DNA of 64,000 bases, taken from a bacterium. Its GTDB lineage: Bacteria > Patescibacteriota > Minisyncoccia > Phycocordibacterales > UBA2100. The position numbers were made by a program, and so were the translations under genes. Each line of letters starts with the position of its first letter. Position 1 is the stretch's first letter. The notes under the pieces were generated by a model. The model was not told the DNA's origin, did no database searches, and saw only the letters and a program-made list of their open reading frames with translations. The DNA is taken from the NCBI GenBank assembly GCA_030674455.1, contig JAUSGQ010000044.1:13080-77079 (forward strand). Reading direction: 5' to 3'. Shown in pieces: positions 43,802-63,977 of this stretch.

Positions 43802-46180
43802 TTATGCTTTGTTATCCCTTTTGGCAAGATAGGACGCAAGGCCGCCCGGGCGCGAATATGCAAATACATTTTCGATTCCTGCATCTCTGGCAAGTACAAT
43901 CACTGCTTCAATTAGGCGCTGAGAGACTGGCGCATCGTCGTGAATGCGCACATCACCTTTAGGCTCCGGGTATTGCAGAAGCATGTTGTATCCGAGAGAA
44001 CTTTTGTCTTCCGGCCGGCCATTCGGGATGAGACCGACGAAATGTGCGCCTTCCGAAAGCCCCGCCTTCGGCTTTTGGTGGAATTTAAAAACGGCATCCT
44101 GCGGAACGTACGCGAGCACTTCTTTTTCCGAGGGCCGTCTACAGGTGCCGATGCCTATCCCATCGGCCATTTTAGAAACTTCCGGCACCGGCCTCGGCCT
44201 ATAATCAGCACTGCAGATTGAAATGCAGACGATATTTTTTCCCTGCGGAGCTAATACTTTCGGCGTAAGGAGTTCATCGTAGGTGATGCCGAGCAATTCT
44301 TTGCCCGAGAGGTCGGTGCGCACGAGCGCGATCTGCCCGGCGATGTGTTCGGCACTTGGCCGATGGGTTGGCATCGGCACCTGTCGACGGTCCGCGGCAA
44401 GAATAATGACCTGCTTCGGGATATTTTTTTCATACGCGGTCTTTTCCGCCATGAGCGGCTCCCAGCAGTGGTTGTAAAGTTCGTACGATTCCTTAACCCA
44501 TCGCGAATACCGATGAAGCACCGTGAAGCGATACTCCGGAGTTTTAAACAATCCATAGATCGATTCAAAGCTCTCGTATGGAAGCTGCTGTTTAAGGATT
44601 GTACGCTGAACTTTTCCCGTCGAGGTCGTCGGGAGTTCCGCGACAGTCATCGAAGTGATGTACTTCGGCGTTTCGTATGCGCTCAAGTACGGCGTACCGC
44701 ATAAAAGCGCCAATTTGAGCCGTCTTTTGGCGGCATCAGTATCAACTCCCTCTTTCCACGAAATCACGGCGCCGCATTCCTCGCCGTAGCGCTCATCGGC
44801 TACCGACACAACGTGAACCTGCGCGATGTCGGAAGATATTTTCTTGAGAGAATTTTCCACGGCAATCGGCGAAATGTTGATGCCGCCTTTGATGATAATT
44901 TCGCGCTTGCGCCCTTTGAGATAAAAATACGGCCTCCCCTCCTCAATGCGGAAATAGCCGATGTCGCCCGTCAAAAAATATCCGCGTGCCTCTGTAGGCA
45001 GGTCGCAAAACGCAGGCTCGCCGCCGACATACCCTTCCATCAAGGCTTCGCCTTTGACGATGATTTCTCCTTCTTCTCCCTCCCCCTGGAATTTCCCATT
45101 CTCATCTGCAATGCGCACATCCGCCCACGACATCGGAGCGCCGATCGAGTTTTCTTCCACGAGACGTTCATACAACTCTTCCGATAGTCCCATCGGCACG
45201 CCCGTCACGCGAAGCGCAGTTTCCGTCTGCCCGTATCCCTGATAGAGCGAGATGCCGAATTTCTTTCTGAATTCTTGCACCGTGCTGGCGATGACGGGAG
45301 CCGAACCTATCTGTATGCGCGAGAGAACGACATTTTTTCTCACCGCTGCGTATTCTTCCTCGCGGTTCAACTGGTCAAAGAGAATTGACTGCACGATAGA
45401 TGTAATCGTCGCGGAGGTCGCGGCTATCTGCTGCCAGAAGTGCGAGTTAGAGTATGCTGGTGGAATCGCGATGGAGCCGCCGGCAAGCAGCATCGCGAGG
45501 CAAAAGGTCGTTGAGTTAATGTGGTGCAGCGGGAGATTGACCAGGAACCTGTCTGTCTCGGTAATTCGAAGCCACTCGCCAATAGCCTCCGCATTGACGA
45601 TGAGATTCTTGAGCGAGAGCTTCGCACCCTTCGGATGCGCCGTCGTGCCGGAAGTAAATAAGACGAGAGCTTGATGCGAAAGCCCCGTTTCCCAAACAAC
45701 CTCTGTATCCTGCTTTTTAGGAAAGTCTGAAAATTCTTTGATATTCACTCCGCTTAAATGCGATTTATCTGCGTCTTTGAGCAAGCCTTTCTGTGCTACT
45801 AGTACTTTCGCACCGTTCAGTTTGATTTTGTATGCGTGCTGTTCGCCCGTGTCGCGTTTCGTGTCGAGCGGAATAGTAATGATTCCGGTACTCCACGCCG
45901 CCCACGAGATTATGAGAAGTTCGGCAGAATTCTTGAACGCGAGCGCGGCCCTGTCCCCTTTGCGCAGGCCCAATTCAGACAGATAGGAGGCAGCTGATTC
46001 CACTTCTTTAGCCAGCTCCCCAAAATTTATTTCACGCAGGATTTTCCCGGTCTCATCGCAACTCACAAGAGCTGCGCGAGAAGGATGCATTTGAGCAAGA
46101 TGTGCGATATGTTCGTGCAGACTTTTGATGCGTTTTTCGTGCATGTGGCTTACTTTACTCTTGAGGCCTCTTGCGCGCAA
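43802..46180 (-). CDS. acyl-AMP ligase (AMP-binding superfamily) fused to a ~280-aa C-terminal domain of unknown function
   Basis: 792 aa. TSGTTAHPKG, GYGQTE and ..TSTGKVQR.. adenylation motifs occupy the first ~510 aa. The remainder has no recognisable motif. Confidence 0.7.
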   Translation of the reverse strand: MRARGLKSKVSHMHEKRIKSLHEHIAHLAQMHPSRAALVSCDETGKILREINFGELAKEVESAASYLSELGLRKGDRAALAFKNSAELLIISWAAWSTGIITIPLDTKRDTGEQHAYKIKLNGAKVLVAQKGLLKDADKSHLSGVNIKEFSDFPKKQDTEVVWETGLSHQALVLFTSGTTAHPKGAKLSLKNLIVNAEAIGEWLRITETDRFLVNLPLHHINSTTFCLAMLLAGGSIAIPPAYSNSHFWQQIAATSATITSIVQSILFDQLNREEEYAAVRKNVVLSRIQIGSAPVIASTVQEFRKKFGISLYQGYGQTETALRVTGVPMGLSEELYERLVEENSIGAPMSWADVRIADENGKFQGEGEEGEIIVKGEALMEGYVGGEPAFCDLPTEARGYFLTGDIGYFRIEEGRPYFYLKGRKREIIIKGGINISPIAVENSLKKISSDIAQVHVVSVADERYGEECGAVISWKEGVDTDAAKRRLKLALLCGTPYLSAYETPKYITSMTVAELPTTSTGKVQRTILKQQLPYESFESIYGLFKTPEYRFTVLHRYSRWVKESYELYNHCWEPLMAEKTAYEKNIPKQVIILAADRRQVPMPTHRPSAEHIAGQIALVRTDLSGKELLGITYDELLTPKVLAPQGKNIVCISICSADYRPRPVPEVSKMADGIGIGTCRRPSEKEVLAYVPQDAVFKFHQKPKAGLSEGAHFVGLIPNGRPEDKSSLGYNMLLQYPEPKGDVRIHDDAPVSQRLIEAVIVLARDAGIENVFAYSRPGGLASYLAKRDNKA

Positions 46181-46865
46181 TTATCAGAAGACCGGTTCCG
46201 AATGGCAACGAAATGAATCTTATGAGCATAGATTCAATTTTTACAACAGCGAAAAAAATCGCGTTGAGTAAGCGCGGCATCCTCAAAGAGCTGTCGCCTG
46301 ACCTTCCCAAGAGGCGCATGAGCGCGGCAGGAATGAAAAGCAGCATGTTCCAGTAACTCGCGTATTCAACTTCAAATCCGGCGTCATTCAATACAGCGCG
46401 CATTGAGGCTTTCGTATACCTTCGGAAATGATGGTGGTTAACATCATGAATGCCCCAGAGAAATTGGAACGCGGGCACTGTTATTGCGAGGTGGCCGCCG
46501 CTCTTTAGCGCCCCGTGGGCTTTTACCAGAAACTCCCTGTCATGCTCGATGTGTTCAACAACATCAAATAGCCCTATCAAATCGTACGCTCGTCCCAGTG
46601 CCTCGCTTTCAGTTGATAATGCACGCAGATAGCCGCGCTTGCTGGCGGCTTCTCGCGCTTCCGCATCCGGCTCGTAGGCATATATATTCTTTCCGATGCG
46701 CGAAAGGTCTTTATACATTCCTCCGTAACCCGCGCCGAAATCAAGAACATCTTCTGCCCGCTTCGCGCCGCACTTCGCAAGCCCGGCGTGAATTGCCGCG
46801 GCACGGCCTCGGTACCACCAGGATTTCTCCATGTCACTCAAAAGTTTAAAAGCGTTTCTCTCCAT
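46155..46865 (-). CDS. class I SAM-dependent methyltransferase
   Basis: VLDFGAGYGG motif I. The start ATG lies inside the left terminus of the GIY-YIG element. Confidence 0.8.
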   Translation of the reverse strand: MERNAFKLLSDMEKSWWYRGRAAAIHAGLAKCGAKRAEDVLDFGAGYGGMYKDLSRIGKNIYAYEPDAEAREAASKRGYLRALSTESEALGRAYDLIGLFDVVEHIEHDREFLVKAHGALKSGGHLAITVPAFQFLWGIHDVNHHHFRRYTKASMRAVLNDAGFEVEYASYWNMLLFIPAALMRLLGRSGDSSLRMPRLLNAIFFAVVKIESMLIRFISLPFGTGLLIIARKRPQE

Positions 46866-47172
46866 ACCCGGTTAGTACAATTTCGAATTATTCCGTCCGT
46901 AATAATCTTTCAATCGCTTTGCAAGAAAGCGACGGCCTCCCGTGGTTTTGAAATATTGTTCTCGACGTTTTGCGTCAACCAGAGAACGACATGCTTCGTA
47001 GTACGCAAGTATAAAAGGCCGTCGTGGTGCTGTGGCAAAACTTTTACCCTGCTGGTGTTGATCCATGCGCTTTCGCAGATCACTCGTATATCCAATATAT
47101 TGCTTATAGTCTTTCATACTCTGCAAGACATAGACATAATAAAAGCGATTCGAAATTGTCCTACCGGGCATA
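46863..47172 (-). mobile_element. TIR-bounded GIY-YIG element (autonomous-looking copy): 22-bp terminal inverted repeats, 4-bp CATA target-site duplication, single 99-aa GIY-YIG gene
   Basis: TIR-L CCCGGTTAGTACAATTTCGAAT (46867..46888), TIR-R ATTCGAAATTGTCCTACCGGG (47148..47168). CATA at 46863-46866 and 47169-47172. The first 8 codons of the GIY-YIG ORF (MPGRTISN) are encoded by the TIR itself. Confidence 0.8.
46872..47171 (-). CDS. GIY-YIG nuclease family protein (YhbQ/UPF0213-like)
   Basis: YYVYVLQS..YIGYTSDLRKRMDQHQQGKS..RRPFILAYYEAC..AKRREQYFK matches the GIY-YIG motifs. Confidence 0.8.
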   Translation of the reverse strand: MPGRTISNRFYYVYVLQSMKDYKQYIGYTSDLRKRMDQHQQGKSFATAPRRPFILAYYEACRSLVDAKRREQYFKTTGGRRFLAKRLKDYYGRNNSKLY

Positions 47173-47174: not shown

Positions 47175-47876
47175 TTATTTTGAAATTACGTTTCTAATTC
47201 TAAACATGGCCCGTAAAGCACCGACACTGTCACGCAAAAGAACAAGTTTGCTTTTCCTGTCTTCGAACCGGTGTTCATTCCAATGAACCGGCACTTCTTT
47301 GATGCTAAGCCCTGCACGTTCAGCGCGCGCAAGAAATTCCATATCAAGGAACCATCCCTTTTCCGTACAGCCCGCAAGGATTTTTCTCCCTCGCGCATTC
47401 ATTATCTTCAGCCCGCACTGGGTATCTTCCACACTCCTCACCCCTACTATCATCTTTCTCAATATGTTGAATGCCTTGGATGACAGCGTTCGAAATGCGC
47501 CGCGCTTAACCATCGTGGTTTCGATAAGGCGCGAACCGATTGCAATATCAAAACCGCTCTTCTCTACCAACGGGAGAAGGTTCAGGATGTCTTCGGGGTC
47601 TGCGGAAAGGTCGGCATCAATAAATCCGAAAAAATCAGCGCCAGAATGGCGCGCGGCAGCGGCGACAGCCGCTCCCTTTCCCCGTATAGGGATTGATAAG
47701 ACGGATACGCCTGGAATGCCCTTTGCGGCGCTTGCCGTACCGTCCGTTGAATCATTGTCGGCAACAATGACAGCAACATCCTCGCCTGTTTTTTGAAGTA
47801 CGCGCAGTACCGCGCCCGCAGATTCCGCAATAATGCGCTCTTCGTTGTAAGCGGGAATGCAGATTTCAATGGCCAT
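47175..47876 (-). CDS. family 2 glycosyltransferase (polyprenyl-phosphate sugar synthase-like)
   Basis: CIPAYNEERIIAESA..VADNDSTDGT..IDADL; DPM1-like GT2. Confidence 0.85.
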   Translation of the reverse strand: MAIEICIPAYNEERIIAESAGAVLRVLQKTGEDVAVIVADNDSTDGTASAAKGIPGVSVLSIPIRGKGAAVAAAARHSGADFFGFIDADLSADPEDILNLLPLVEKSGFDIAIGSRLIETTMVKRGAFRTLSSKAFNILRKMIVGVRSVEDTQCGLKIMNARGRKILAGCTEKGWFLDMEFLARAERAGLSIKEVPVHWNEHRFEDRKSKLVLLRDSVGALRAMFRIRNVISK

Positions 47877-49386
47877 AATGTTTCCTCATTCGTTTGACTA
47901 GCTCATGAGCCCCTGCGGCTGCGAGAATTAGAAGATACGGCTCCGCAGGAATCCGGTACCGCGAATTGGACATGGGGCCGGTAAGCGCCGCAAAATACGC
48001 AACTAACACAAATAACAGAAGTATCGCAAAATCTCTGCGGCGCAATACGGTAGCAACAAGCGCCAAAAGCGTAATGCAGAGCCACCAAAATATTTCCAGC
48101 GCTATGGGCGAAAGATTCCGCACAGCACTGATAAATGAACTCGCACTTTCGGGATGGCGAATTTTCCGCAACGAATCAAGGATTGAGAGCGTTACCGGTG
48201 CATAGAAACCCTCATTATCGCGCAGCTGTCGTTCGATTTGCTTATATGAAGCAACACTGCTGGATATAAAAAACGGTATCGTATTCACCGTATGAAAATA
48301 CGCGTATCTCACAGGGTCGCGCATGATGTAGTAAATGGCAAGTTTTCCTTCATAGTTATCGGAGTCCTTTCCCGGTGGAGTTATCTCAGCGAGCCTTTTT
48401 GCCACGTCCGTATCAACAACAGAAAACACGGGATCATTAAAATGTCTCATGGCGAGAATCGCTGGCAATTGCTCGGGAGTCCCCGCAAGAGTTCTCCACG
48501 CAAGAAATCCGCGTACGTTGTTTATTAGAAGATTATGTCCGCCAAGAGGAGATATTTCGAAAGATTCGAACTGCGAGTAGTTGCGCGCAATCCACGGGGT
48601 CACGATGACCGCAAATCCTAAAATGCACGCGATAATGACTTTCAGCCGAGAAACTTTTTCGCTCACTACTGTCGGATCCGCCTTTTTCGAAGCCATCGGG
48701 TTCGACGAGCTCACCGTGAACCATTCGCGTAAAAGGTACATTGCAGGAAATACAAACACTAGAAATTGCGCGATTGGTCGGATCATCGTTATCGCGCCAA
48801 GCAGAAGCCCTACAAGCCCCCACCGAGCGATTCCTTTTAATCGAGATTGTTGGCCTGCCTGCCTCGCTCCGCTTGGCGTAGGCAGGAAAAATGCGAAATA
48901 GACTATGAATATAAGAAGAGAGCTAAAAAGTCCGTCAGTCATAATTGCGGAATCCGTAAAAACAGCCATGGGGTCTATCGCGTATGCGAGCGCTGGCACA
49001 AGCGCATACGCACTCGGCACAAGAGTGCGCGCCATTCTATAGATAAGTACCGCGGCATATGCAGAGAGGATAATTTGCAGGATGACAATGGGCGCCATGC
49101 TTCCGGTGAGAGCCTTCGTTGCCGCAAGCAAGGCGGGATATCCTGGAGGCGCGGCGTGCAGGGGTACTCCCTTCGGGTTTTCATAGGCGTGAAATTCTAG
49201 AAGGTTGTCGGCCCAGAGCGCGTAATATGAAGAGTCGCCGGACACGACCGGGTACGGATGCGCGGCGGGATTCGTGCTCGCGAGCGATGAGAGATATCCG
49301 AAAGACAGCAGGCGCGCGCATATGGCGAGCACTACAAGGATAACCACAATCGCAGACTCATTTGATACGCGCTCAAATAATTTCAT
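47866..49386 (-). CDS. GT-C family membrane glycosyltransferase (ArnT/PMT-like)
   Basis: 506 aa, >10 TM with a large periplasmic loop. Overlaps the GT2 gene as in polyprenyl-P-sugar donor/transferase pairs. Confidence 0.6.
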   Translation of the reverse strand: MKLFERVSNESAIVVILVVLAICARLLSFGYLSSLASTNPAAHPYPVVSGDSSYYALWADNLLEFHAYENPKGVPLHAAPPGYPALLAATKALTGSMAPIVILQIILSAYAAVLIYRMARTLVPSAYALVPALAYAIDPMAVFTDSAIMTDGLFSSLLIFIVYFAFFLPTPSGARQAGQQSRLKGIARWGLVGLLLGAITMIRPIAQFLVFVFPAMYLLREWFTVSSSNPMASKKADPTVVSEKVSRLKVIIACILGFAVIVTPWIARNYSQFESFEISPLGGHNLLINNVRGFLAWRTLAGTPEQLPAILAMRHFNDPVFSVVDTDVAKRLAEITPPGKDSDNYEGKLAIYYIMRDPVRYAYFHTVNTIPFFISSSVASYKQIERQLRDNEGFYAPVTLSILDSLRKIRHPESASSFISAVRNLSPIALEIFWWLCITLLALVATVLRRRDFAILLLFVLVAYFAALTGPMSNSRYRIPAEPYLLILAAAGAHELVKRMRKHYGH

Positions 49387-49395: not shown

Positions 49396-50223
49396 CTACA
49401 TTCTTCCATGATCATCCTCAATGCGCACGATGTCGTCCTCGCTGAAATCTCCGTAGGCAACTTCTACAACGACCCCACCGTACTTGGAGAACAGCCTGTG
49501 TACCTGCTTTTTCACGACCCGGAAGACTTCGCCTTTTTTGAGCGCGACCGTCCGCTTTCCGGAAGAATCATGAACAATCGCGGAAGCATCGCCTTCCACG
49601 AGCAACCACCACTCCTCGCGGTTATGGTGGTACTGCAGGCTCAAGCGTTGCGCCGGTTTTATGTAGATTGTTTTCAGGTTCCACCCTTCTCCGTTATCCC
49701 ATCCGTAATATTCACCCCACGGGCGCACCGTCTTGGATGCGTGGCGGCGCGAAGCCTTAATCATCCACGACGACGATTGCACTTTGCCGCCCTCGCCGAC
49801 GTTGAAAACCATTCTTGTGCCGAGCTTTTTGCATGTGGCTACTTCCGGTATGTTGCTTTTGAATCGGTCCCCGCCGTTGGCAAAAACAGCCGGCTTCAAT
49901 TTCTCTATCGCACGGCATACGCTCGTATCAACATCCCCCTTTTTGTGGTCGGTAATCACCACCTTATCTACAGTGGGCAACGAGCGCAGGAGTTCGGCCC
50001 GCTCTTTCTGCGGCATGAAAACAAATCCCTTTTTTGCCTTCAGCCAATGGTCATTATTGAGTATCACCACGAGTCTGTCGCCGAGCTTTCGGGCCTCCTT
50101 GAACATGCGGATGTGTCCGATATGCAGCGGATCAAAGCCACCGGAAACGGCTATCCAGCGAGTTGAGTTCTTCTTCACCCCGTTAGAGGCAGGGCGCGGT
50201 CGTTTTGATTCTTTGGTATTCAT
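49396..50223 (-). CDS. cytidylyl/adenylyltransferase (HIGH nucleotidyltransferase) fused to a cupin domain
   Basis: IAVSGGFDPLHIGHIRMF (HxGH), then a C-terminal cupin (..LQYHHNREEWWLLVEGDA..). The N-terminus MNTKESKRPRPASNG is encoded within the duplicated inverted-repeat module. Confidence 0.7.
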   Translation of the reverse strand: MNTKESKRPRPASNGVKKNSTRWIAVSGGFDPLHIGHIRMFKEARKLGDRLVVILNNDHWLKAKKGFVFMPQKERAELLRSLPTVDKVVITDHKKGDVDTSVCRAIEKLKPAVFANGGDRFKSNIPEVATCKKLGTRMVFNVGEGGKVQSSSWMIKASRRHASKTVRPWGEYYGWDNGEGWNLKTIYIKPAQRLSLQYHHNREEWWLLVEGDASAIVHDSSGKRTVALKKGEVFRVVKKQVHRLFSKYGGVVVEVAYGDFSEDDIVRIEDDHGRM

Positions 50224-51116: not shown

Positions 51117-51123
51117 ACGTTAT

Positions 51124-55067: not shown

Positions 55068-55165
55068 GATATTTCTAAATCTCAACCATAGTATACGCCG
55101 AAGGTCTCCGGTGCCAATGCTTTTCCAACTTGCCACGAGAGGAGTTAGTAGTAGAGTGTGACGAT

Positions 55166-55951
55166 ATGGAAAATAAAGACCTTAAAAAGATCTACGAAAA
55201 AGCCTATAAAAAAGGAGAAAATAAGCACTTTACCAATCTTATCGAGGGACTTCATTCCGAGGAGCGCGAGATTCTTAATGCAACACAATGGAAGGGTAAG
55301 AAAGTGCTGGATGTGGGATGCGGGACAGGTCTCTTTGTACATGAAGCGGCAAAACGCGGCGCGTTTGTGATAGGGCTCGACTACGTGCCACAGGCAATCG
55401 AAATTGCCAAGCGAACACACAAACATCCCAATATTGAATTTCGTTGTGAAGATATTCATAAAACAATCAACAAATATAAGGGGCGGAAATTCGACGTGGT
55501 GGTGTCTGTGGGAACGGTAGAACACTTGGATAAACCATTCGCCATGCTGAAACTTTTCAAACAGATTGTTAAGCCTCGGGGAGAAATCATTTTTACTTGT
55601 CCCAACTGGATAAACCCCCGCGGACTCATACTCCAGACCATGCGGTACTTGTTTGACGCGCCCATCACACTTGCCGATCTGCATTATTTTTCTCCAAGAA
55701 TCTTTGAACGGTGGGCAGCAAAAAATAAACTGCAACTGCGTTGGAAGACCTTTGATACGTCGTGGGGTGCGGGAGACATGCTTTTGCGCGATCTTAAGCG
55801 CCGGCTTCCCAATGTGCTGCGCGATATGGGACTGAAGAATGACCGGGGCATAAAGAATTTCCTTAAATGGCTTAAAGACGAAGCTCTTCAGGTCCCGTGG
55901 ACAGGGAAATATGTGGGAGTGAACACGCTTTACCACGTGAAGAAGAAATAG
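55166..55951 (+). CDS. class I SAM-dependent methyltransferase
   Basis: VLDVGCGTGLF. The ATG at 55166 is preferred over the TTG at 55130. Confidence 0.8.
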   Translation: MENKDLKKIYEKAYKKGENKHFTNLIEGLHSEEREILNATQWKGKKVLDVGCGTGLFVHEAAKRGAFVIGLDYVPQAIEIAKRTHKHPNIEFRCEDIHKTINKYKGRKFDVVVSVGTVEHLDKPFAMLKLFKQIVKPRGEIIFTCPNWINPRGLILQTMRYLFDAPITLADLHYFSPRIFERWAAKNKLQLRWKTFDTSWGAGDMLLRDLKRRLPNVLRDMGLKNDRGIKNFLKWLKDEALQVPWTGKYVGVNTLYHVKKK

Positions 55952-56026: not shown

Positions 56027-56845
56027 TCAGAGGCATTCTTCGATATATTTTTTATACTGCGCATTAAGCGCCAGCTCTCCCCCGTCTTCTTTCCGCGCGC
56101 CTTGCAAGATAAGAGGTCTCCGGTAGCCGATATCACGCAGAGCATTCAGCGCGGCGGGAAGGTCTGCGCACCCTTCTCCAAATGGTACCGACGTGCTTTC
56201 CTCATTAGGGTCTGTATTAAGTAAACGGTCTTTAATGTGAACTCCAGCTATTTTTGTATTGAGCAGCCGTATTTCGTCCACCACAGGGAATCCGCACGCA
56301 AACTGATTGCCCAAATCATAATATGACCCGAACGCAGAAGGGGTTTCAGATTGCATAATAAAATCCAAGACGGTCTGCGCAGGAAGCTCTGCCTCTATAC
56401 CAAGGGTGATGCCAAGCTGTGCGGCATGCCTTGCCGCGGGAGCAAGAAGTTCATGCGCGCGCTTCCATGTTGCGTCAGGCAAGATTCCAAGTTTCTTCTC
56501 ATGAAAGAACGACACTAGTATTACTTTCGCGCCAAGGTCCGCCGTCGCGTGGACAATGTCGAACAAGTCTTTCGCATACCCATCTTCCGGCACGTAGTAA
56601 CCGTGAACAGAAGGAATGGCAATGTGAGTCGTATCCCTAATCTCGCGCAGTCGGGTACGCCCCGCTTCTGTCATAAGAGGGTGTTCGCGCAAACCTTTCG
56701 GGCGCATTAGAAGTTCGATTGCGCCCAGCCCGATCTCGCGCGCATCGCTGAATTCCTGCTCCCAATTATCTTTGGGAAAAAACTGTATGCCGCGTCCGCT
56801 GCTCGGCGTGAGCCTTCCCTGCAATATACCTATGAGCGGTTTCAT
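56027..56845 (-). CDS. sugar phosphate isomerase/epimerase (xylose-isomerase-like TIM barrel)
   Basis: 272 aa with AP-endonuclease-2/XylA-like barrel motifs. Confidence 0.7.
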   Translation of the reverse strand: MKPLIGILQGRLTPSSGRGIQFFPKDNWEQEFSDAREIGLGAIELLMRPKGLREHPLMTEAGRTRLREIRDTTHIAIPSVHGYYVPEDGYAKDLFDIVHATADLGAKVILVSFFHEKKLGILPDATWKRAHELLAPAARHAAQLGITLGIEAELPAQTVLDFIMQSETPSAFGSYYDLGNQFACGFPVVDEIRLLNTKIAGVHIKDRLLNTDPNEESTSVPFGEGCADLPAALNALRDIGYRRPLILQGARKEDGGELALNAQYKKYIEECL

Positions 56846-56846
56846 A

Positions 56847-57512
56847 TCACCGCGGTTTTGTACCAGTGCCGAGGATCATTAGCTCGCGCGACCAACGGAT
56901 AAACTTATTTCTGTGGAGTTTCTTAACAGGCCCCAAGAGTTGCAACAATTTTGACACGAACATGATCGACGGGTAGCGCCAAAGAACCGGCAACTGGTAA
57001 AAAAGCATTGCCTGCACATCTACAACTTCCATAATCCGCAGAAGGTCGCGCATGCCCCGAATGGTGAACGGACGCTGATGCGTGTGATCGTCCCAAAAAA
57101 TATACATCTGCGTGTACCAGTCGGGCGTGAGGCATATGAGCCTGCCACCGGGTTTCAGCACACGCAAATTCTCTGCAATAAAATGTTCGGGGTTAGTGAC
57201 GTGCTCTATAACTGATTTTGAAAAGACAATATCGAACGTCCCATCTTTGTACGGGAGCGGCTCGTACACCAGATCAGCCGCAGTGAAAGTAACTGAGTTA
57301 GGAAAATGTCCTGCCCTCTCGCGATCAACACCATGCACAATAAGCCCCGCTCCCGCGAACGCTTCGGCAAAATCGCCCCGCCCACAGCCGATATCAAGAA
57401 TGGTCATGCCATCCTTGAGTTGAAACATCTCTTTAAGATGCAGCGCGAGTTCGTTTGGGTAATCCGTTTTTGGCCGTGCGGCGTGCGAATAAATAGTCTC
57501 AAGGTAACTCAT
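56847..57512 (-). CDS. class I SAM-dependent methyltransferase
   Basis: ILDIGCGRGDF. Confidence 0.8.
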   Translation of the reverse strand: MSYLETIYSHAARPKTDYPNELALHLKEMFQLKDGMTILDIGCGRGDFAEAFAGAGLIVHGVDRERAGHFPNSVTFTAADLVYEPLPYKDGTFDIVFSKSVIEHVTNPEHFIAENLRVLKPGGRLICLTPDWYTQMYIFWDDHTHQRPFTIRGMRDLLRIMEVVDVQAMLFYQLPVLWRYPSIMFVSKLLQLLGPVKKLHRNKFIRWSRELMILGTGTKPR

Positions 57513-57528
57513 ATATTAAGTTTTAATA

Positions 57529-58479
57529 TTAAGCTTTTTTAGGCCAGCGCGCAGGGTCCACTTCTCCTGGATCTTTAATAGCCAGAGCTTTGAGGGCGTC
57601 GACCGCGTCTTTCGAGAGCGGGCCTTTTTCCATCGCGGCACATGCGGCCTCAACGTGCGCAACATTTGACGTTCCGATGAGAGACACCGCTATCGCCGAC
57701 TCCGACAGCGTATAACGAAGGGCGAGTTCCGGCAATGTTATACCCGCATCATCCGCTATTTTCTCCGCAACCGCGACCGCCCACTTCAGTTTGACAAGAT
57801 TTTCTGGAAGATGATTTGCCTTACCTGCAAACGCCCCTTTCAAGTACACGGAGCGATTGACGACGCCTACTCCCCGTTCCACAGCTCTCGGAAATATTCG
57901 CGCAGACATGCGCTGGTCGGCAATGCTGAATGCGACCTGCACAACATCAGCCCAATTGCGTTTCATCAAGGCGAGCGGCGGCTCTTCTCCGCGGGTGGAA
58001 GCGCCGGAAAAACGGATTTTCCCCTCCGTCTTCAGCTTCCCAATAATCTCTTCCAAAATCCCTTCTTCAATCTGCTCTGCGGAGGGTCCGTGCAAAAGAA
58101 GTAGCGGCAGTATTTCAATTCCCAATGTTCTTAAACTTCCTTCCACCTGTTCAAAAATCTTCTTCTCCATCTGCGCCGGGGTAAGGACTTCTCCATCCTC
58201 AAGGAATTTTGCGCACTTGGTGCATACGACGACGCGCGGGTCTTTTAATATGCCGGATTTCCCTATCCTATCCTCCGCAAGGCCGTAGTAATTTGCGGTA
58301 TCAAAGAAAGTAACCCCAAGTTCCACAGCAGTTTTCAAAAGTTTTATTGCGTCGGCCTCGCTCGGAAGCTCCGGCACTCCGAGTCCGTAGGCAAATCCGA
58401 TTTCCGCGGTTCCGAGTCCGAGACGCGACACCGCAAGGCCGGTTTTTCCCAGTGTTCCCTGCGTACGTGCGACTGTCAT
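57529..58479 (-). CDS. aldo/keto reductase
   Basis: GLGTAEIG, ..FFDTANYYG... Start trimmed to MTVARTQ (ATG 58477-58479). Confidence 0.8.
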   Translation of the reverse strand: MTVARTQGTLGKTGLAVSRLGLGTAEIGFAYGLGVPELPSEADAIKLLKTAVELGVTFFDTANYYGLAEDRIGKSGILKDPRVVVCTKCAKFLEDGEVLTPAQMEKKIFEQVEGSLRTLGIEILPLLLLHGPSAEQIEEGILEEIIGKLKTEGKIRFSGASTRGEEPPLALMKRNWADVVQVAFSIADQRMSARIFPRAVERGVGVVNRSVYLKGAFAGKANHLPENLVKLKWAVAVAEKIADDAGITLPELALRYTLSESAIAVSLIGTSNVAHVEAACAAMEKGPLSKDAVDALKALAIKDPGEVDPARWPKKA

Positions 58480-58506
58480 TGGCCTATCATAGAAGAAAAC
58501 GCGCCA

Positions 58507-59808
58507 ATGACAAACCGGAATGAATACCGTACAATCGCCCATATGGCGATTAAAACAAAATATCGAAACATCAGGGCCGATTTCAAACTGCGCGAAACTC
58601 CGCTCTTTAAGAAGCTCGTCTCGCTTGAGCCTGCTTCAACCAAAAACACGCTGCCAATCACGTGGGCCAAGGCGAAAGATTTCTCTGTCTGGGACGACAA
58701 GGGCAACAAATGGATAGATATGACCTCCGGCATCTTCGTCGCAAACGCAGGACACGCTAATCCCAAAATAAAAGCGGCTATCAAAAAACAGCTTGATAGC
58801 GATCTTCTGTTCGCATACAACTACCCGACAGAAATAAAAAAGAAATTTATAGAGAAACTGCTTGCCATTTCACCAAAACATTTCAACGCGACAACACTGC
58901 TTAACTCTGGCTCGGAGGCAATGGACACCGCCTACAAGCTCATCAAACTCTATGGCAATAAAACGGGGAAGAAGTATGTCGTGAGCTTCACGGGCAACTA
59001 CCATGGCCGCGGGCTAAGCAACGAATTGATTTCCGGCGGACCGAAAAGCGCAGCGTGGGCGGGCGTTACGGATTCGGACATCGTATTCTTGGATTTTCCT
59101 TACGATATGAAAGCAGAGTTTGATTACAAGAAACTTCCGCAAGGCACGGATATCGCTGGGTTCGTCATAGAGACATTTCAGGGCTGGGGGTGCTGGATGT
59201 ACCCGAAAAAATTCCTGCGCGACTTATACACCTTTGCCAAAAAGAACAAGGCGTTGGTCTGCTTCGATGAAATGCAGTCGGGCTTTTACCGCATGGGCCC
59301 GCTTTACGGATACATGACCTACGGCGATTTCAAGCCGGATATTTTGGGTCTGGGAAAAGGCATCTCCTCTTCTCTTCCGCTGTCCGCCGTACTGTCTAGG
59401 AAAGAATTGTTTGATATCGACAAGAATGCCGACCTTCACGGCACGCACTCCGGAAATGCCTTATGCGTAGCGGCCGGACTCGCTAACTTGGAATTCTTGA
59501 GTTCGCACGAGGAAATCGCGCGGCGCAAAAAGACTTCGGCAATTTTTGAAAAAGAATTGCTGGCGCTGGAAAAGTCCCCGCTCGTTCGCCAAGTCAATGT
59601 AAGCGGGCTCATCGCCGGCATTATTTTTGAGGACAAAGAAGATTCAATGGCTATCGTGCGCGAGTGCGTTAATCGCGGCGTACTCGCGATGCTCATTCCG
59701 CGCAACTCCATCAAGCTAGCGCCTCCGATGACTATCACGCCACAGGCGCTCACGGAAGCCATGGGTGTCCTTCGCGAAGCGATAGCGAAACGCGAAGCGA
59801 ACGCCTAA
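58507..59808 (+). CDS. class-III PLP aminotransferase
   Basis: GSEAMDTAYKLIK.., DEMQSGFYRMG and GKGISSSLP motifs. Start could be 58543. Confidence 0.8.
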   Translation: MTNRNEYRTIAHMAIKTKYRNIRADFKLRETPLFKKLVSLEPASTKNTLPITWAKAKDFSVWDDKGNKWIDMTSGIFVANAGHANPKIKAAIKKQLDSDLLFAYNYPTEIKKKFIEKLLAISPKHFNATTLLNSGSEAMDTAYKLIKLYGNKTGKKYVVSFTGNYHGRGLSNELISGGPKSAAWAGVTDSDIVFLDFPYDMKAEFDYKKLPQGTDIAGFVIETFQGWGCWMYPKKFLRDLYTFAKKNKALVCFDEMQSGFYRMGPLYGYMTYGDFKPDILGLGKGISSSLPLSAVLSRKELFDIDKNADLHGTHSGNALCVAAGLANLEFLSSHEEIARRKKTSAIFEKELLALEKSPLVRQVNVSGLIAGIIFEDKEDSMAIVRECVNRGVLAMLIPRNSIKLAPPMTITPQALTEAMGVLREAIAKREANA

Positions 59809-60539
59809 GAGAAATTCTTTTTCAGATAGTCGTATATCTCCCACGAACCATTCTTGAGCGTGTATTCCGCGAATGCGAAGTCTTCTTGCTTGTCTATCTC
59901 GCCGGTATCTGGGCTTACAAACGCGAGAATTTTATTGCCATGCATCACGTGTGTCTTTTGTATAAAATCTGTCCTCAAAACATCCACGTACCCGTCTGGC
60001 TGATAGACCGGCGGAAATGTCTGGCGTGGCAGATTCCAATATTCCGGTCGCGAGTCCTGCGGGAAAAGTCCCGTAAAATATCCGTCTTTAATACCGAATA
60101 GTTTAAACGGCGACTCGCGAATTTCGTGGCCTGAGCGAAGAGAAGTCGCATCCTTATGCTCTGTGAGCATTTCTATTGCACTATCGATGTCATTCGGTTT
60201 GCGCAGAGGAGTCGTCGGCCGCAAATGCACTAAATATTCCGGAACTTGGTTCTCATTCTCCTTCAACCACTCTATCGCATGCCGGACAAATTCAATGTCG
60301 GGAGAATCATCGCGCGCAAATTCCGCTGGACGCATGAATGGTGTTTCTGCGCCAAAACTTCTGGCAACTTCGGCCATCTCTTCGCTATCGGTGGAAACAA
60401 TAACACGTTCTACTTTCTTTGAGAGTTTAGCAACAGCTATTGAATACGCGATAAGCGGAAAACCACCCAAAAGGGCGATGCTTTTTTTGGGCAATCCTTT
60501 CGAGCCGCCACGCGCCGGAATGATTGCGAACGCATTCAT
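59805..60539 (-). CDS. acylneuraminate cytidylyltransferase family (CMP-nonulosonate synthetase), copy 1
   Basis: AIIPARGGSKGLPKKS.. N-terminus typical of NeuA/PseF/LegF. Confidence 0.8.
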   Translation of the reverse strand: MNAFAIIPARGGSKGLPKKSIALLGGFPLIAYSIAVAKLSKKVERVIVSTDSEEMAEVARSFGAETPFMRPAEFARDDSPDIEFVRHAIEWLKENENQVPEYLVHLRPTTPLRKPNDIDSAIEMLTEHKDATSLRSGHEIRESPFKLFGIKDGYFTGLFPQDSRPEYWNLPRQTFPPVYQPDGYVDVLRTDFIQKTHVMHGNKILAFVSPDTGEIDKQEDFAFAEYTLKNGSWEIYDYLKKNFS

Positions 60540-61495
60540 TTTCGGCGCAACTTCTTGATAACATCAACTTCTTCTGGATGAATATTCTTTTCTCCGTCGC
60601 CGAGAGAGATATGATGCTCGCGAATCCAGCGGCATAAGCTCAAGAACGGCCCAGGTTCCACTGAACTTGCCTGGTCACTCCCCCACATCCCGCGCTCAAG
60701 CGTGAGATGTTTTTCTACAAGCACGGCACCCATAGCGACCGCGGCAAACGTCGGCACAATACCTGAGTCATTTCCGGAGAAACCGACTGGGACATTAGGG
60801 AATTCTTTCTGAAGGGTGTGTATTCCGCGCAAGTTAATCATCGAGAGCATGCGCTCCGATTCAGCCTTAGGATACACGCCAGTACACTGAAGCACGACAA
60901 GGTCGTTGGTACCTAGCACTTCAACCGCATGCCGCACCATGGCGAGGTTGCTCATTCCTGTTGAAAGAATGACCGGGCGGCCCTTTGAGCGTATGTGCCG
61001 AAGAAGCCCGTCATCGGTGAGCGATGCGGATGCGATTTTGTATGCGGGCGGGTCGAACTCCTCAAGAAAATCGACGGCTTCCTCGTCCCACGGCGAAGCG
61101 AACCACAAAATACCTTTCTCTTTGCAATAGCGGTCAATCTCCGCGTACTCTTCCTTGGTGAACTCAAGCGCATACTTCTGGTCGCCATTTCGCGTATCTT
61201 TGAAATCGCTCGCCTTGAGTCGCTTAACCGACTCTTGCGGAAGAACACCGCGCGCGATTGCGTTTTCTATTATAAATCGCGGTACCTCGCGCGGCTTGTC
61301 GCGCTCCCCCGGCGAGAAGACAATATCAACTGTCCGCTTCTGAAATTTCACCGCGTCAGCTCCTGCCTCAACTGCTTTATCTATGAGTTTCTTGGCAATC
61401 TGTATATCGCCGTTGTGGTTTATGCCGAGTTCGGCAACGATAAAAGCCGGTTCAGAATGGCCGACGACTTTATGCGCGATTGATACTTTTGCCAT
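60536..61495 (-). CDS. N-acetylneuraminate synthase family (NeuB/PseI/LegI-like), copy 1, short C-terminus
   Basis: PAFIVAELGINHNGDIQIAKKLID..ADAVKFQ TIM-barrel core. At 319 aa the SAF domain looks truncated or absent. Confidence 0.8.
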   Translation of the reverse strand: MAKVSIAHKVVGHSEPAFIVAELGINHNGDIQIAKKLIDKAVEAGADAVKFQKRTVDIVFSPGERDKPREVPRFIIENAIARGVLPQESVKRLKASDFKDTRNGDQKYALEFTKEEYAEIDRYCKEKGILWFASPWDEEAVDFLEEFDPPAYKIASASLTDDGLLRHIRSKGRPVILSTGMSNLAMVRHAVEVLGTNDLVVLQCTGVYPKAESERMLSMINLRGIHTLQKEFPNVPVGFSGNDSGIVPTFAAVAMGAVLVEKHLTLERGMWGSDQASSVEPGPFLSLCRWIREHHISLGDGEKNIHPEEVDVIKKLRRK

Positions 61496-61579: not shown

Positions 61580-62260
61580 TCACACGTCCTTGCGGCGCAG
61601 TATTTCTTCAACTTTCGCAAAATCTTCAGGATAATCAACGTCAATGTTCTCATCTGACTCCATGAGAAGCACCCGCGCATGGTCAGCGACTAGTTGTTTG
61701 CGCACAATGGATGCGCGAGTCATATAGATGGCGCCGTTCTCCTTGAACAGAGGATGTTGGTACTGGCTGTTTACGAGCTCAATCGGATACAGCCGTTTCC
61801 ACGCATCGCCCTCTTGTATCCAGTAGTGGCCCTTATCGTAATGCCCGCTTATGACCGAATCGGCGTCCGTCTTGACTGCCAGCGCGATAGCCTGCTCAAT
61901 ACGCTCGCGCGATAAGAGGGGGGATGTCGGATAGAGTAAGAGTACATAGTCCGGCTGGTATCCTTCTTGCGATTTAAGCGTATCGAGAGCGTGCATGAGC
62001 ACTTCCTGGGACGTCGCTGCATCCGTAGTGAGTTCTTGTGGGCGGAGAAATGGAACCTCAGCGCCATAACGTTCGGCGACTTTTTTTATCTCCTCGGACT
62101 CGGTAGTGACAATTACACGGCTCACTCCCCGTGCAGATTTCGCTGTCTCAATGATGTACGCCATCATCGGCTTGCCACAAAGGTCTTTCAGGTTCTTGCC
62201 GGGAATACGCGTTGAGCGCGCCTTAGCCGGAATAACAACGAGTACGGAATGGTTTGTCAT
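61580..62260 (-). CDS. acylneuraminate cytidylyltransferase family, copy 2
   Basis: VVIPAKARSTRIPGKNL.. N-terminus. Confidence 0.8.
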   Translation of the reverse strand: MTNHSVLVVIPAKARSTRIPGKNLKDLCGKPMMAYIIETAKSARGVSRVIVTTESEEIKKVAERYGAEVPFLRPQELTTDAATSQEVLMHALDTLKSQEGYQPDYVLLLYPTSPLLSRERIEQAIALAVKTDADSVISGHYDKGHYWIQEGDAWKRLYPIELVNSQYQHPLFKENGAIYMTRASIVRKQLVADHARVLLMESDENIDVDYPEDFAKVEEILRRKDV

Positions 62261-62273: not shown

Positions 62274-63323
62274 TTACGCTATCAAATTGCGTCGCAAAGG
62301 GGTTGCACGCGCAATGTCGCGCGCAGCACGCTTCCCCATTATAAAACGATAGAACTTGGGAGCGAGCCCGTTGCCAGGGCGGATTGAGCGCACGTTCTCT
62401 GGCGTAAACCTTTCACCTTTTTTGATATCTTTCACGACAAAAAGCGATTTGCGAAAAACAATATTCTTTTTCTCGTCCGTGCTTTGTTTATATGAAGGTT
62501 TGCCGAGTGCCGCTTCTACTAATCGTACCGAGCTTACAAGAGAGGCAAATTCCTTCGGCTCAAGAGAGAAGCTTGAGTCCGGCCCTCCATCTTTCCGTCG
62601 TAACGTAAAGTGCTTTTCTATAATGGCGGCGCCAAGAGCAATTGCGGCAACCGCAACATTAGTGCCGAGAGTGTGGTCAGAGAGTCCAACTTGCACGTTA
62701 AAACGCTTATGCATGTCGGAAATGGTAGAGATGTTCATGTCGGTTGAACTTGCCGGATATGCACTCACGCAATGCAAAAGAATGATGTCCTTGGTCCCGA
62801 ACCTCCGTAACGTCTTCATGGCCAGCCGGATTTCTTCAACAGACGCCATTCCGCGCGACATGATGACAGGCTTTTTTGTTTTCCCGATTCTCTCCAATAA
62901 GGGAATATCCACTATCTCAAATGAGGCGACTTTGTACACAGGATTATCTAATGTCTCCAAGAAATCGACTGCCGTCGTATCGAACGGCGTAGAAAAGCAC
63001 ATGAGTCCGCGTTTTTTTGCATGAGCAAATAAGTCTTTGTGCCACTTCCATGGTGTATGCGCCTCTTCGTACAAATCATAAAGTGTACGGCGCTTGCCAT
63101 TCCACGTAACCATAAACGGCTTCGTGTCAGAATCTATCGTGAGCGTATCCGGCGTGTAGGTTTGAAGTTTTATTGCGTCAGCGCCCGCCAGTGCGGCAGC
63201 GTCTATTATTTTAAGCGCCCTTTTAATGTCGTGATTATGATTGCCGGACATCTCCGCAATGATAAGCGCAGGTTCTCCCGACCCAATAATGTGCTTGCCA
63301 AGCTGTATATTTGTCGTGCGCAT
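62274..63323 (-). CDS. N-acetylneuraminate synthase family, copy 2 (with SAF domain)
   Basis: PALIIAEMSGNHNHDIKRALKIID..ADAIKLQTY plus a C-terminal SAF (..VVKDIKKGERFTPENVRSIRPG..). Confidence 0.85.
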   Translation of the reverse strand: MRTTNIQLGKHIIGSGEPALIIAEMSGNHNHDIKRALKIIDAAALAGADAIKLQTYTPDTLTIDSDTKPFMVTWNGKRRTLYDLYEEAHTPWKWHKDLFAHAKKRGLMCFSTPFDTTAVDFLETLDNPVYKVASFEIVDIPLLERIGKTKKPVIMSRGMASVEEIRLAMKTLRRFGTKDIILLHCVSAYPASSTDMNISTISDMHKRFNVQVGLSDHTLGTNVAVAAIALGAAIIEKHFTLRRKDGGPDSSFSLEPKEFASLVSSVRLVEAALGKPSYKQSTDEKKNIVFRKSLFVVKDIKKGERFTPENVRSIRPGNGLAPKFYRFIMGKRAARDIARATPLRRNLIA

Positions 63324-63326
63324 AGG

Positions 63327-63977
63327 TTATTTTGACCCTCCTCTCTTGGAGATATTGATGATATAGGTGTGTCCGCGATGAGTAAAGAATGCCGGATACC
63401 GCTCATTGTCAGCGACTCGCAACTGATTGAAAAGCTCCACTAAAGATTTGTTCGGGTCCAACTCGCTGTCTTTGGGTGTTCGCTTCGGGTAGAAGCTCTC
63501 ATCGCCCTTTTGCGGCGTGCCAACGACATCGGGATATCTGTCTGCAAACCATAGCGCAAGCTTGATAATAGCTTCCCCTTCCTTTTGCCGCATTTCATCA
63601 ATGAGTTCATGTCCCTCAAAAAGAATTGTCGCAGTCGCGTATACTTCTCCGGCATCAACTTCATCGGCCGCTTCAAATAGCGTGAGCGTAATTTCATTCT
63701 TTCCTTCCAAAACTTGCCAGCTAAGAGGAGACCATCCCTTGCCCTGCGGTAAGGCGCTCGCGTGTATAACGACGCTGTGCGTATTGCGATTCCGAAAGTC
63801 TTTTTTTATGAGATGTTCGCAACTGAGAAAGAAAACGATATCACCCTGCGGAATATCCTGCGGACTCAATACATTAACTACCTCGTGACCGCGTTCGCGC
63901 AACTGACGGGCGAGCTCCTGCCCATAGGGCACGGCCCAGCTTCCGGGATTGTCTATAAGTATCGATATTTTTGCCAT
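63327..63977 (-). CDS. formyltransferase (Fmt/PurN N-terminal-domain family); probable sugar N-formyltransferase
   Basis: 216 aa with ..HASALPQGKGWSPLSWQV.. N10-formyl-THF transferase motifs. Sits at the head of the glycan locus. Confidence 0.7.
   Translation of the reverse strand: MAKISILIDNPGSWAVPYGQELARQLRERGHEVVNVLSPQDIPQGDIVFFLSCEHLIKKDFRNRNTHSVVIHASALPQGKGWSPLSWQVLEGKNEITLTLFEAADEVDAGEVYATATILFEGHELIDEMRQKEGEAIIKLALWFADRYPDVVGTPQKGDESFYPKRTPKDSELDPNKSLVELFNQLRVADNERYPAFFTHRGHTYIINISKRGGSK

Follow-up and report, generated by a model that had tools for sequence, protein, structure and literature searches.

A glycan island with two distinct NeuB-family synthases in a Kaiserbacteria-like Patescibacterium

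We analysed a 64-kb stretch of the 87.8-kb contig JAUSGQ010000044.1 (metagenome-derived assembly GCA_030674455.1, proteins MDO8553020-MDO8553024, locus tags of the type Q7S01_05865; the whole stretch is referred to here as the window) from an uncultured Patescibacterium, approximately 20 kb of which (positions 43802-63977) form a glycan island. The island contains two genes for NeuB-family synthases, a short one without a SAF domain and a longer one with it, and two genes for CMP-sugar synthetases, both CTP_transf_3 proteins. An original prediction, made from the letters of the window, had described these two pairs, and our data agree with it on their positions and domains. It had also listed a formyltransferase, a class-III aminotransferase, three S-adenosylmethionine (SAM) methyltransferases, a short-chain dehydrogenase/reductase (SDR), an aldo/keto reductase (AKR), an enzyme of the xylose-isomerase fold, a cytidylyltransferase-cupin fusion, an acyl-AMP ligase fusion, a family 2 glycosyltransferase (GT2), and a KpsS/KpsC-like protein. 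We recovered all of these (Table 1), with one methyltransferase gene lying on the forward strand and the Capsule_synth match of the KpsS/KpsC-like protein being weak. A 'GT-C pair' and 'two DMT (drug/metabolite) transporters' were not borne out, as we found a single GT-C-like open reading frame (ORF) and a single polytopic membrane ORF. Genes beyond that list are those for an AbiEii toxin with its probable partner and for a GIY-YIG domain protein.

Our best explanation of the island is that it is a cell-surface glycan locus of a Kaiserbacteria-like Patescibacterium, put together from separable modules. The nearest named relative of its 512-residue GT-B-fold protein (77% identical) is from Candidatus Kaiserbacteria and the other named matches are mostly from Patescibacteria; the close named homologues of the short synthase are from Parcubacteria, Kaiserbacteria, or Paceibacterota. 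We compared the island with Patescibacteria loci that contain relatives of the short synthase (L083-L089), with 80 metagenome loci that contain a related pseudaminic acid synthase (PseI; L091-L170), and with genome loci taken from a set of one genome per prokaryotic species, in which neighbours of the short synthase were counted for the best 80 of at least 594 matches. Approximately 0.9 kb past the end of the window was read from Logan contigs (3.8 kb and 14 kb) that match PseI or the aminotransferase.

Two NeuB-family synthases from different clades

We found that the long synthase scores 483.8 bits on the NCBIfam PseI equivalog model (TIGR03586), passing its cut-off of 340.25. Its closest solved structure is the PseI 8h2c (E 6e-92), with which it pairs in 97 of 100 neighbour-joining bootstraps. 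Judged by these family matches, the long synthase is a pseudaminic acid synthase and one product of the island is of the pseudaminic type. The short synthase scores 232.2 bits on the NeuB equivalog model (TIGR03569), for which the cut-off is 399.65, and falls under the PseI cut-off as well; being under both, it is predicted to be neither a LegI nor a NeuB. The original prediction had called for a phylogenetic placement of both copies, and neighbour joining places them in different clades and not as tandem duplicates. A recent tandem duplication of the synthase and transferase pairs was ruled out, since the two synthases are 33% identical, as are the two cytidylyltransferases, and the clades differ. 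The prediction had allowed for either two sugars or duplicated steps; the 33% identity and the different clades make the former by far the likelier of the two, and our data suggest that the island probably makes two different acidic sugars. Its proposal of legionaminic- or pseudaminic-type sugars stands as the pseudaminic type for the long copy and is unlikely for the short copy, which is SAF-less and resembles synthases of the 9-phosphate of ketodeoxynononic acid (Kdn).

Relatives of the short synthase are widespread in the species-representative genomes, and the best 80 loci (46-58% identity) come from Parcubacteria, Saccharibacteria, Nitrospiraceae, Chloroflexota, Acidobacteriota, Melainabacteria, and others. 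According to a 2021 survey, approximately 30% of nonulosonic acid (NulO) synthase sequences are SAF-less, environmental, and without an assigned function (PMC8208679). As a reference for this class we used the Kdn-9-phosphate synthetase of Prymnesium parvum (312 residues, SAF-less; sequence from the supplement of PMC6200933), which has been characterised biochemically and is strictly specific for mannose 6-phosphate (Man-6-P; PMC6200933). The short synthase matches this enzyme over its full length (29% identity, E 7e-35), other members of the SAF-less clade are 34-38% identical to it, and PseI matches it with an E-value of 8e-14. In neighbour-joining trees built with few characterised references, BT1714 not among them, 42 of 50 bootstraps recover the short forms as monophyletic and 34 of 50 place the Prymnesium enzyme as their sister. 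These comparisons point to the Prymnesium Kdn-9-phosphate synthetase as the nearest characterised relative tested. Furthermore, 27 of the 80 genome loci have a HAD (KdsC-type) phosphatase gene downstream of the short synthase gene, in every case co-directional with it and at a median distance of 688 bp. This phosphatase (ORF cluster 4) is typical of non-Patescibacteria loci and is 32-37% identical to the Kdn-9-phosphate phosphatase of Bacteroides thetaiotaomicron; a tblastn search with the latter gave no match in the window. Based on the homology to the Kdn enzyme and the phosphatase gene context, the SAF-less clade as a whole likely condenses phosphoenolpyruvate (PEP) with a sugar phosphate. 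Within the limited literature searched, we found nothing directly relevant on nonulosonic acids in Patescibacteria or the Candidate Phyla Radiation, or on SAF-less NeuB proteins.

We aligned the short synthases to the numbering of Neisseria NeuB (NmNeuB) and found that E25, K53, Q55, K129, S132, T155, Y186, S213, E234, H236, and D247 are invariant in 24 of the 24 closest relatives. Glu134 of NmNeuB is one of three proposed catalytic residues (PMC8208679). At this position a Ser is found throughout the short-synthase group, in most of the wider clade, and in the Prymnesium enzyme. Another substitution concerns His215, which in NmNeuB is reportedly a Mn2+ ligand. The window protein has an Asn (Asn242) at the aligned position, as do 11 of the 21 other Patescibacteria-like clusters aligned, so that the Asn variant recurs in 12 distinct clusters at 62-100% identity to the window protein; the Prymnesium Kdn enzyme and every one of the 62 short forms from the genome loci have a His there. 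We considered whether the Asn tracks an adjacent aminotransferase gene, which is true in four of six Asn-type loci (the window, L083, L084, and L085), and dropped the link as not strict since L088 and L089 are without the aminotransferase and the His-type locus L023 has one. Relative to PseI, the short synthase also contains an insertion of approximately 30 residues after the strand that carries Lys53 and Gln55, and a 47-residue stretch around it holds 11 Arg or Lys residues. By its position in the alignment, the insertion would sit in the same loop as the alpha2beta2 loop, which favours phosphosugar use in human sialic acid synthase (Cotton et al. 2014, as reported in a paper that cites it). 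The column of NmNeuB Arg314 is a gap in the short synthase, which has no SAF domain.

Organization of the cassette and of the pseudaminic acid genes

The genes around the short synthase form a cassette (52715-61495) that recurs in other loci. In L084, the order is short synthase, cytidylyltransferase, aminotransferase on the opposite strand, AKR, methyltransferase, SDR, and Capsule_synth protein, with identities to the window of 80% for the short synthase, 74% for the cytidylyltransferase, 62% for the aminotransferase, 76% for the AKR, 92% for the SDR (a fragment), and 67% for the GT-B protein. In L084 the cassette comes after another NulO module, one with a SAF-containing synthase that is only 31% identical to the window PseI, and in L083 (short synthase 71% identical) the cassette is present with no Pse genes or NulO module beside it. 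The more distant Patescibacteria loci L085-L087 keep a core of short synthase, cytidylyltransferase, xylose-isomerase-like TIM barrel, and SDR, with a methyltransferase, an AKR, a class-IV aminotransferase, an SIS isomerase, or EamA as variable extras; the same four-gene core is found in Chloroflexota, Nitrospiraceae, and Polyangia. Conversely, the locus closest to the window on the pseudaminic side (L092, PseI 75% identical) contains PseB-like and PseC genes upstream of PseI and, in order, formyltransferase-like, PseI, PseF-like, membrane-protein homologue, cupin fusion, and GT-C genes, with neither a short-synthase cassette nor a toxin-antitoxin pair. Among window proteins and ORFs of at least 120 residues, only a Gfo/Idh/MocA gene lies between its membrane protein and cupin fusion. 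The cassette is a portable block, apparently inserted between the PseF-like gene and the membrane protein of a Pse backbone, and since L092 has this backbone without the cassette or the AbiE-like pair, the window looks like that backbone plus two insertions. The original prediction had treated the tailoring genes as a decoration kit for legionaminic- or pseudaminic-type sugars; this part does not stand for most of them, as the aminotransferase, AKR, TIM barrel, two methyltransferases, and SDR travel with the short synthase.

A separate Kaiserbacteria contig (L087, 783-21005) contains both a short SAF-less and a SAF-containing synthase, along with five CTP_transf_3 genes (one off the locus end), a sulfotransferase, an ATP sulfurylase fusion, and an APS kinase; its sulfur genes hint at sulfated ulosonic acid glycans.

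The cytidylyltransferase gene overlaps the short synthase gene by 4 nt, its orthologue occupies the same position in L084, and the protein scores 128.3 bits on the PseF model, under the cut-off of 205.7. The SDR is among the commonest neighbours of the short synthase, being found in 40 of the 80 genome loci, the same number as the cytidylyltransferase. The TIM barrel, which weakly matches L-ribulose-5-phosphate 3-epimerase models, occurs no more than 10 kb from the short synthase in 18 of the 80 genome loci and also in L083, L085, L086, and L087. The class-III aminotransferase occupies the same position, on the opposite strand, in L083 and L084; among solved structures it comes closest to acetylornithine, GABA, ornithine, and putrescine aminotransferases, and an annotated NCBI product of 421 residues places its true start probably near 58543. 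Of the AKR's top solved matches, those named as sugar enzymes are L-galactose dehydrogenases, and a Logan gene call of 316 residues places its start near 58479. A reverse-strand ORF at 55145-55936 was rejected as a gene since it has no Pfam match and the overlapping forward-strand methyltransferase is the called gene.

The GT-B-fold protein of the cassette is a candidate CMP-ulosonate glycosyltransferase. Its Capsule_synth match is confined to residues 349-446, it aligns to KpsC chains over only approximately 90 residues (E 2e-5), and it weakly matches the BFO_1060 glycosyltransferase family and TIGR04396. An AlphaFold2 (AF2) model (pLDDT 88.6) has two Rossmann-like halves, and the best Foldseek matches are UDP-GlcNAc 2-epimerases and GT1 enzymes, with KpsC absent from the top 50. 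Homologues of this protein adjoin PseI or short-NeuB genes.

On the pseudaminic side, the PseF-like synthetase scores 141.7 bits on the PseF model, under its cut-off. In L091 and L092, its 76-77% identical orthologues lie downstream of PseI, and the one in L092 adjoins PseI directly. The formyltransferase-like gene is a conserved PseI partner in relatives, as it also precedes PseI in L092, L093, L096, and L099. Its product weakly matches the NCBIfam ArnA and formyltransferase models. By eye, the His and Asp of the formyltransferase catalytic motif (Asn, His, Asp) are present, but a Val seems to stand in place of the Asn, two residues ahead of the His. The activity is therefore putative. Just past the window we found a DUF218 gene and the C-terminal part of an N-acetyl-sugar amidotransferase of the WbuX/PseA type (TIGR03573, E 6e-23). 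Of the 80 metagenome loci, 28 contain PseB-like genes, 35 DegT-like genes, 21 DUF218 genes, and 16 formyltransferase-like genes within 10 kb of PseI, mostly upstream. The DUF218 gene beside the formyltransferase gene is thus a conserved PseI neighbour, and may have a so far unrecognised function in Pse loci of this kind. Another DUF218 gene lies within the window (40504-41148, reverse strand), the one just past its end being at 298-915 of L001. Distant homologues of the class-III aminotransferase (23-28% identical to that of the window) occur within 10 kb of PseI in 24 of the 80 loci, which indicates that such aminotransferases are recurrent in nonulosonic acid loci and not peculiar to the window.

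The original prediction placed the dehydratase and the NeuC/PseG-type hydrolase outside the window, where a PseC/LegC step was also to be sought; in keeping with the absence of the dehydratase and the aminotransferase, tblastn with the PseB and DegT proteins of L084 gave no match anywhere in the 64 kb. It further presumed that the missing early genes lie beyond 63977. The amidotransferase past the window and the PseB- and PseC-like genes near PseI in relatives lend support to this by analogy, and PseB and PseC of this genome probably lie further past the window end. In L092, the closest long relative, a PseC equivalog and a PseB-like gene near the cut-off lie upstream of PseI. Neither the window nor L092 yielded a PseH or PseG equivalog. 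Given that L092 has no PseH equivalog and has the formyltransferase-like gene directly before PseI, a 7-N-formyl or acetamidino pseudaminic acid is a plausible product of this module.

Remaining genes of the island

Table 1. Genes of the glycan island in order of position within the 64-kb window
Feature	Position	Strand	Basis
Acyl-CoA/acyl-AMP ligase (~1-533) with GNAT-like domain (~535-792), 792 aa	43802..46180	-	AMP-binding E 8e-62
SAM methyltransferase MT1, hydrophobic C-terminus	46155..46865	-	Methyltransf_23 E 1e-17
Small GIY-YIG domain protein, 99 aa	46872..47171	-	GIY-YIG E 3e-14
GT2, polyprenyl-phosphate glycosyltransferase type	47175..47876	-	Glycos_transf_2 E 5e-24
GT-C-like integral membrane glycosyltransferase	47866..49386	-	PMT_2 E 3.6e-5, 24.5 bits, just under 26.1 cut-off
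Cytidylyltransferase-like domain + mannose-6-phosphate-isomerase cupin fusion	49396..50223	-	CTP_transf_like E 1e-14; MannoseP_isomer E 2.5e-20
AbiEii nucleotidyltransferase toxin	50373-51116	-	AbiEii E 3.6e-19, 70.1 bits vs 22.5
Putative AbiEi partner, 199 aa	51124-51723	-	Position upstream of AbiEii; no Pfam or NCBIfam match
Polytopic membrane protein (277 aa), possible transporter or flippase	51852..52685	-	~10-12 hydrophobic segments (hydropathy)
GT-B-fold protein, 512 aa, Capsule_synth (KpsC/KpsS-like)	52715..54253	-	PF05159 32 bits vs cut-off 20
SDR	54273..55136	-	adh_short_C2 E 1e-33
SAM methyltransferase MT2	55130..55951	+	Methyltransf_31, _11, _25, E ~1e-19 to 1e-20; Logan gene call
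Xylose-isomerase-like TIM barrel (sugar/sugar-phosphate isomerase/epimerase family)	56027..56845	-	AP_endonuc_2 E 1.7e-23
SAM methyltransferase MT3	56847..57512	-	Methyltransf_11 E 3.5e-18
AKR	57529..58542	-	Aldo_ket_red E 1e-35
Class-III (omega-type) aminotransferase	58507..59808	+	Aminotran_3 E 2e-65
Second CMP-sugar synthetase	59805..60539	-	CTP_transf_3 (PF02348) E 1e-22, 81.2 bits vs 22.6
SAF-less NeuB-family synthase, Kdn-9-phosphate-synthase-like	60536..61495	-	NeuB domain only, E 2e-65
PseF-like CMP-sugar synthetase, Pse module	61580..62260	-	CTP_transf_3 (PF02348) E 3e-23, 83.2 bits vs 22.6
Predicted pseudaminic acid synthase PseI	62274..63323	-	NeuB E 5e-90 + SAF E 2.5e-12
Formyltransferase-like protein, directly upstream of PseI	63327..63977	-	Pfam Formyl_trans_N E 1e-7

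The membrane protein next to the cassette has no Pfam or NCBIfam match even at E<=1, and the closest EamA protein found by BLASTP is 26% identical (E 0.047). Homologues that are 38-40% identical occur in the Pse loci L092 and L095, adjoining PseF in L092. The AbiE-like pair (50373-51723) appears to be an insertion of non-glycan genes that interrupts the island, and neither protein, used as a query, found a match in any of the 80 Pse loci, the syntenic L092 included.

The cytidylyltransferase-cupin fusion weakly matches the RfaE domain II and GMP/PMI models and has 72-75% identical orthologues in L092 and L095. In L092 it is followed by a 60% identical orthologue of the GT-C-like protein, which in the window has about nine hydrophobic segments. 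The best NCBIfam matches of the GT2, all under cut-off, are AglJ, dolichyl-phosphate hexose transferase, PpgS, and ArnC; since these are polyprenyl-phosphate glycosyltransferases, the GT2 fits a GT2/GT-C lipid-carrier system. The GIY-YIG gene sits between the GT2 and MT1 genes, and a 47% identical copy is found in the Pse locus L095.

The C-terminal domain of the ligase (262 residues, 43802-44590) is rare: it has no Pfam or NCBIfam match, and a search of 5.8 billion proteins yielded only 18 homologues, which either stand alone or are fused to AMP-binding ligases. Its AF2 model (pLDDT 87.8) has a GNAT-type fold; in Foldseek it is closest to CurA, GphF, and SxtA (E 3.5e-6 to 2.6e-4), through their GNAT-like loading/decarboxylase domains. 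Cys122, Ser124, Cys126, His171, Arg192, and Asp195 (numbering of the domain) are invariant. On the basis of the model, it is reasonable to regard the protein as a fusion that would activate and transfer an acyl group.

At the lower edge of the island lie a gene for a Zn-dependent alcohol dehydrogenase with an N-terminal extension of approximately 120 residues (41834-43270, reverse strand) and, overlapping it, an ORF for a PaaX-like regulator with a Cas2-like middle domain (43159-43728, forward strand). The remainder of the window is occupied by housekeeping genes, including aminoacyl-tRNA synthetases, thymidylate kinase, and a diaminopimelate (DAP)/lysine operon. This apparent operon (18984-25854, forward strand) comprises genes for aspartate-semialdehyde dehydrogenase, aspartokinase, DapB, DapA, a class I/II aminotransferase, and a LysA-type decarboxylase, and stands in a genome that is otherwise Patescibacterium-like.

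Proposed pathway, alternatives, and relation to known systems

The explanation that we favour, and that we consider fairly probable, is an island of separate modules: a pseudaminic pathway, a SAF-less ulosonic acid cassette, and a lipid-carrier set. The first module would be the distal part of the pseudaminic pathway, with the formyltransferase-like protein, PseI, and the PseF-like CMP-synthetase inside the window and DUF218 and an acetamidino-type amidotransferase outside it. For the second module, we draw on the gene identities, family placements, cassette synteny, and residue substitutions observed here and infer its substrates, order of steps, and final sugar as follows. The short synthase would condense PEP with an aldose, most likely one that is non-N-acetylated or phosphorylated, and the translationally coupled cytidylyltransferase would convert the ulosonic acid to its activated CMP form. 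The SDR, AKR, and TIM-barrel epimerase/isomerase might oxidise, epimerise, or reduce the sugar, the class-III aminotransferase might add an amino group, and two methyltransferases might methylate it. The GT-B Capsule_synth-like protein would pass the CMP-ulosonate to an acceptor. The third module would provide lipid-carrier glycosylation through the cytidylyltransferase-cupin fusion, the polyprenyl-phosphate GT2, and the GT-C protein, and the acyl ligase-GNAT fusion could N-acylate an amino sugar. A more specific proposal is that the cassette is a Patescibacteria-associated route to an undescribed aminated and methylated CMP-ulosonic acid that starts from an Asn-type SAF-less synthase; we put this forward tentatively, as a possibility that is more doubtful than the modular explanation itself. 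Under this proposal, the Asn that replaces the proposed metal-ligand His may change or abolish metal dependence.

Several observations weigh against this explanation. None of PseB, PseC, PseG, and PseH was found in the window, and PseB and PseC of the host genome are assumed by analogy to relatives. The sister link of the short forms to the Kdn-9-phosphate synthase has 68% neighbour-joining support in trees with few characterised references, and the lack of a KdsC-type phosphatase in the window leaves the use of a phosphorylated substrate without local support. The Asn aligned with His215 could alter or abolish the activity of the short synthase. The GT-B protein could be a nucleotide-sugar hydrolase or epimerase, since its best structural matches are UDP-GlcNAc 2-epimerases, and it may serve the Pse module instead, as its homologues adjoin PseI in other loci.

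Part of this evidence would also suit a simpler second module that converts Man-6-P, PEP, and CTP into CMP-Kdn with the help of an unlinked phosphatase, with the other cassette enzymes acting on other sugars. The nearest characterised relative tested is a Man-6-P-specific Kdn-9-phosphate synthetase that shares the Ser at the Glu134 position, the mannose-6-phosphate-isomerase cupin domain of the island could supply Man-6-P, and the Prymnesium pathway is likewise without a recognisable dedicated phosphatase (PMC6200933). We nevertheless regard CMP-Kdn as unlikely. The identity to the characterised enzyme is only 29%, and the replacement of His215 by Asn and the insertion of approximately 30 residues separate the subclade from it. 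Moreover, the TIM barrel and SDR accompany the short synthase in different phyla and the aminotransferase and AKR hold fixed positions in close relatives, which argues that these enzymes act on the same sugar as the short synthase. The TIM barrel is also what could speak for a 7- or 8-carbon ulosonic acid made from a pentose or tetrose phosphate that the epimerase and the dehydrogenases prepare: the models nearest to it are those of ketose-phosphate 3-epimerases, related cassettes contain SIS (GmhA-like) sugar-phosphate isomerases, and loss of the SAF domain removes Arg314, which binds the hexosamine substrate in NmNeuB. Given that the Prymnesium enzyme, the sole characterised SAF-less synthase examined, used neither arabinose-5-phosphate nor arabinose (PMC6200933), we consider such a product very unlikely.

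Still less credible is that the two pairs are redundant and make one nonulosonic acid through duplicated steps, or that the short copy is a decayed, inactive paralogue. Both synthases are Pfam NeuB proteins and both transferases CTP_transf_3 proteins, and the short copy lacks SAF and has a different residue at the position aligned with a proposed metal ligand. However, the members of each pair fall to 33% identity and the synthases into separate clades, and the short form is a conserved family whose at least 594 matches come from species-representative genomes. Its eleven catalytic-site positions are invariant among 24 relatives, and the Asn variant recurs in 12 distinct clusters. The cassette also exists without Pse genes (L083), and the Pse backbone without the cassette (L092).

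Nonulosonic and related ulosonic acids shape the recognition of bacterial surfaces, and their biochemistry is known almost wholly from pathogens. Here, an uncultured Patescibacterium with a small genome devotes approximately 20 kb to two ulosonic acid modules. The island gives the large SAF-less NeuB class a concrete and portable set of genes, and linking this class to Kdn-9-phosphate synthase and an adjacent KdsC-type phosphatase makes its function testable, as does the Asn subclade with its replaced putative metal ligand. If the second sugar is new, the cassette would represent a further biosynthetic route to bacterial ulosonic acids and its product might serve to mark Patescibacteria surfaces chemically; the SAF-less clade at large (at least 594 matches) would then be an uncharacterised parent family. 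The interest of the island rests on the SAF-less cassette and the host lineage, and not on the two-pair arrangement as such.

Indeed, multi-pathway nonulosonic acid loci are known elsewhere, so that the arrangement is not unprecedented: the Vibrionaceae nab clusters and Leptospira reportedly have more than one NulO synthase or cytidylyltransferase per genome or locus. The island differs from these in that its second module is of the SAF-less class and its host is a Patescibacterium. The first module resembles the Campylobacter and Helicobacter pseudaminic pathway (PseB, PseC, PseH, PseG, PseI, PseF) in its PseI equivalog, in the CMP-transferase after PseI, in the PseB and PseC genes upstream in relatives of the island, and in the WbuX/PseA-type amidotransferase nearby. 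It departs from that pathway in the formyltransferase-like gene and DUF218 as PseI neighbours, in a transferase that scores under the PseF cut-off, and in having no PseH or PseG equivalog in the window or L092.

The third module is comparable to the ArnC/ArnT and GtrB/Gtr systems of lipid-carrier glycosylation, as the GT2 matches dolichyl- and undecaprenyl-phosphate glycosyltransferases and adjoins a multi-span PMT_2-like protein; unlike in those systems, all matches are under the equivalog cut-offs and we found no recognisable flippase subunit in the island. For the second module, a chemical precedent exists in the Kdo8N of Shewanella, where KdnB oxidises and KdnA transaminates Kdo, so that the amino group is added after condensation. 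The likeness, a dehydrogenase and an aminotransferase acting on a ulosonic acid, is one of chemistry; the enzymes of the island are an AKR or SDR and a class-III aminotransferase. If it makes an undescribed sugar, the cassette would differ from the nucleotide-hexosamine route of the pseudaminic and legionaminic pathways. The CMP-Kdn pathway of B. thetaiotaomicron and Prymnesium parvum (PMC6200933) consists of a Kdn-9-phosphate synthase, a Kdn-9-phosphate phosphatase, and a CMP-Kdn synthetase. The second module differs from it in the 29% identity of its synthase, the Asn at the His215 position, the insertion of approximately 30 residues, and the absence of a phosphatase from the window, and that pathway has no need of the co-inherited aminotransferase, AKR, TIM barrel, SDR, and methyltransferases of the island. 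The two are nonetheless alike in a SAF-less synthase of approximately 300 residues with full-length homology, in the Ser at the position of NmNeuB Glu134, in a dedicated CMP-transferase, and, across the wider clade, in a KdsC-type phosphatase encoded next door.

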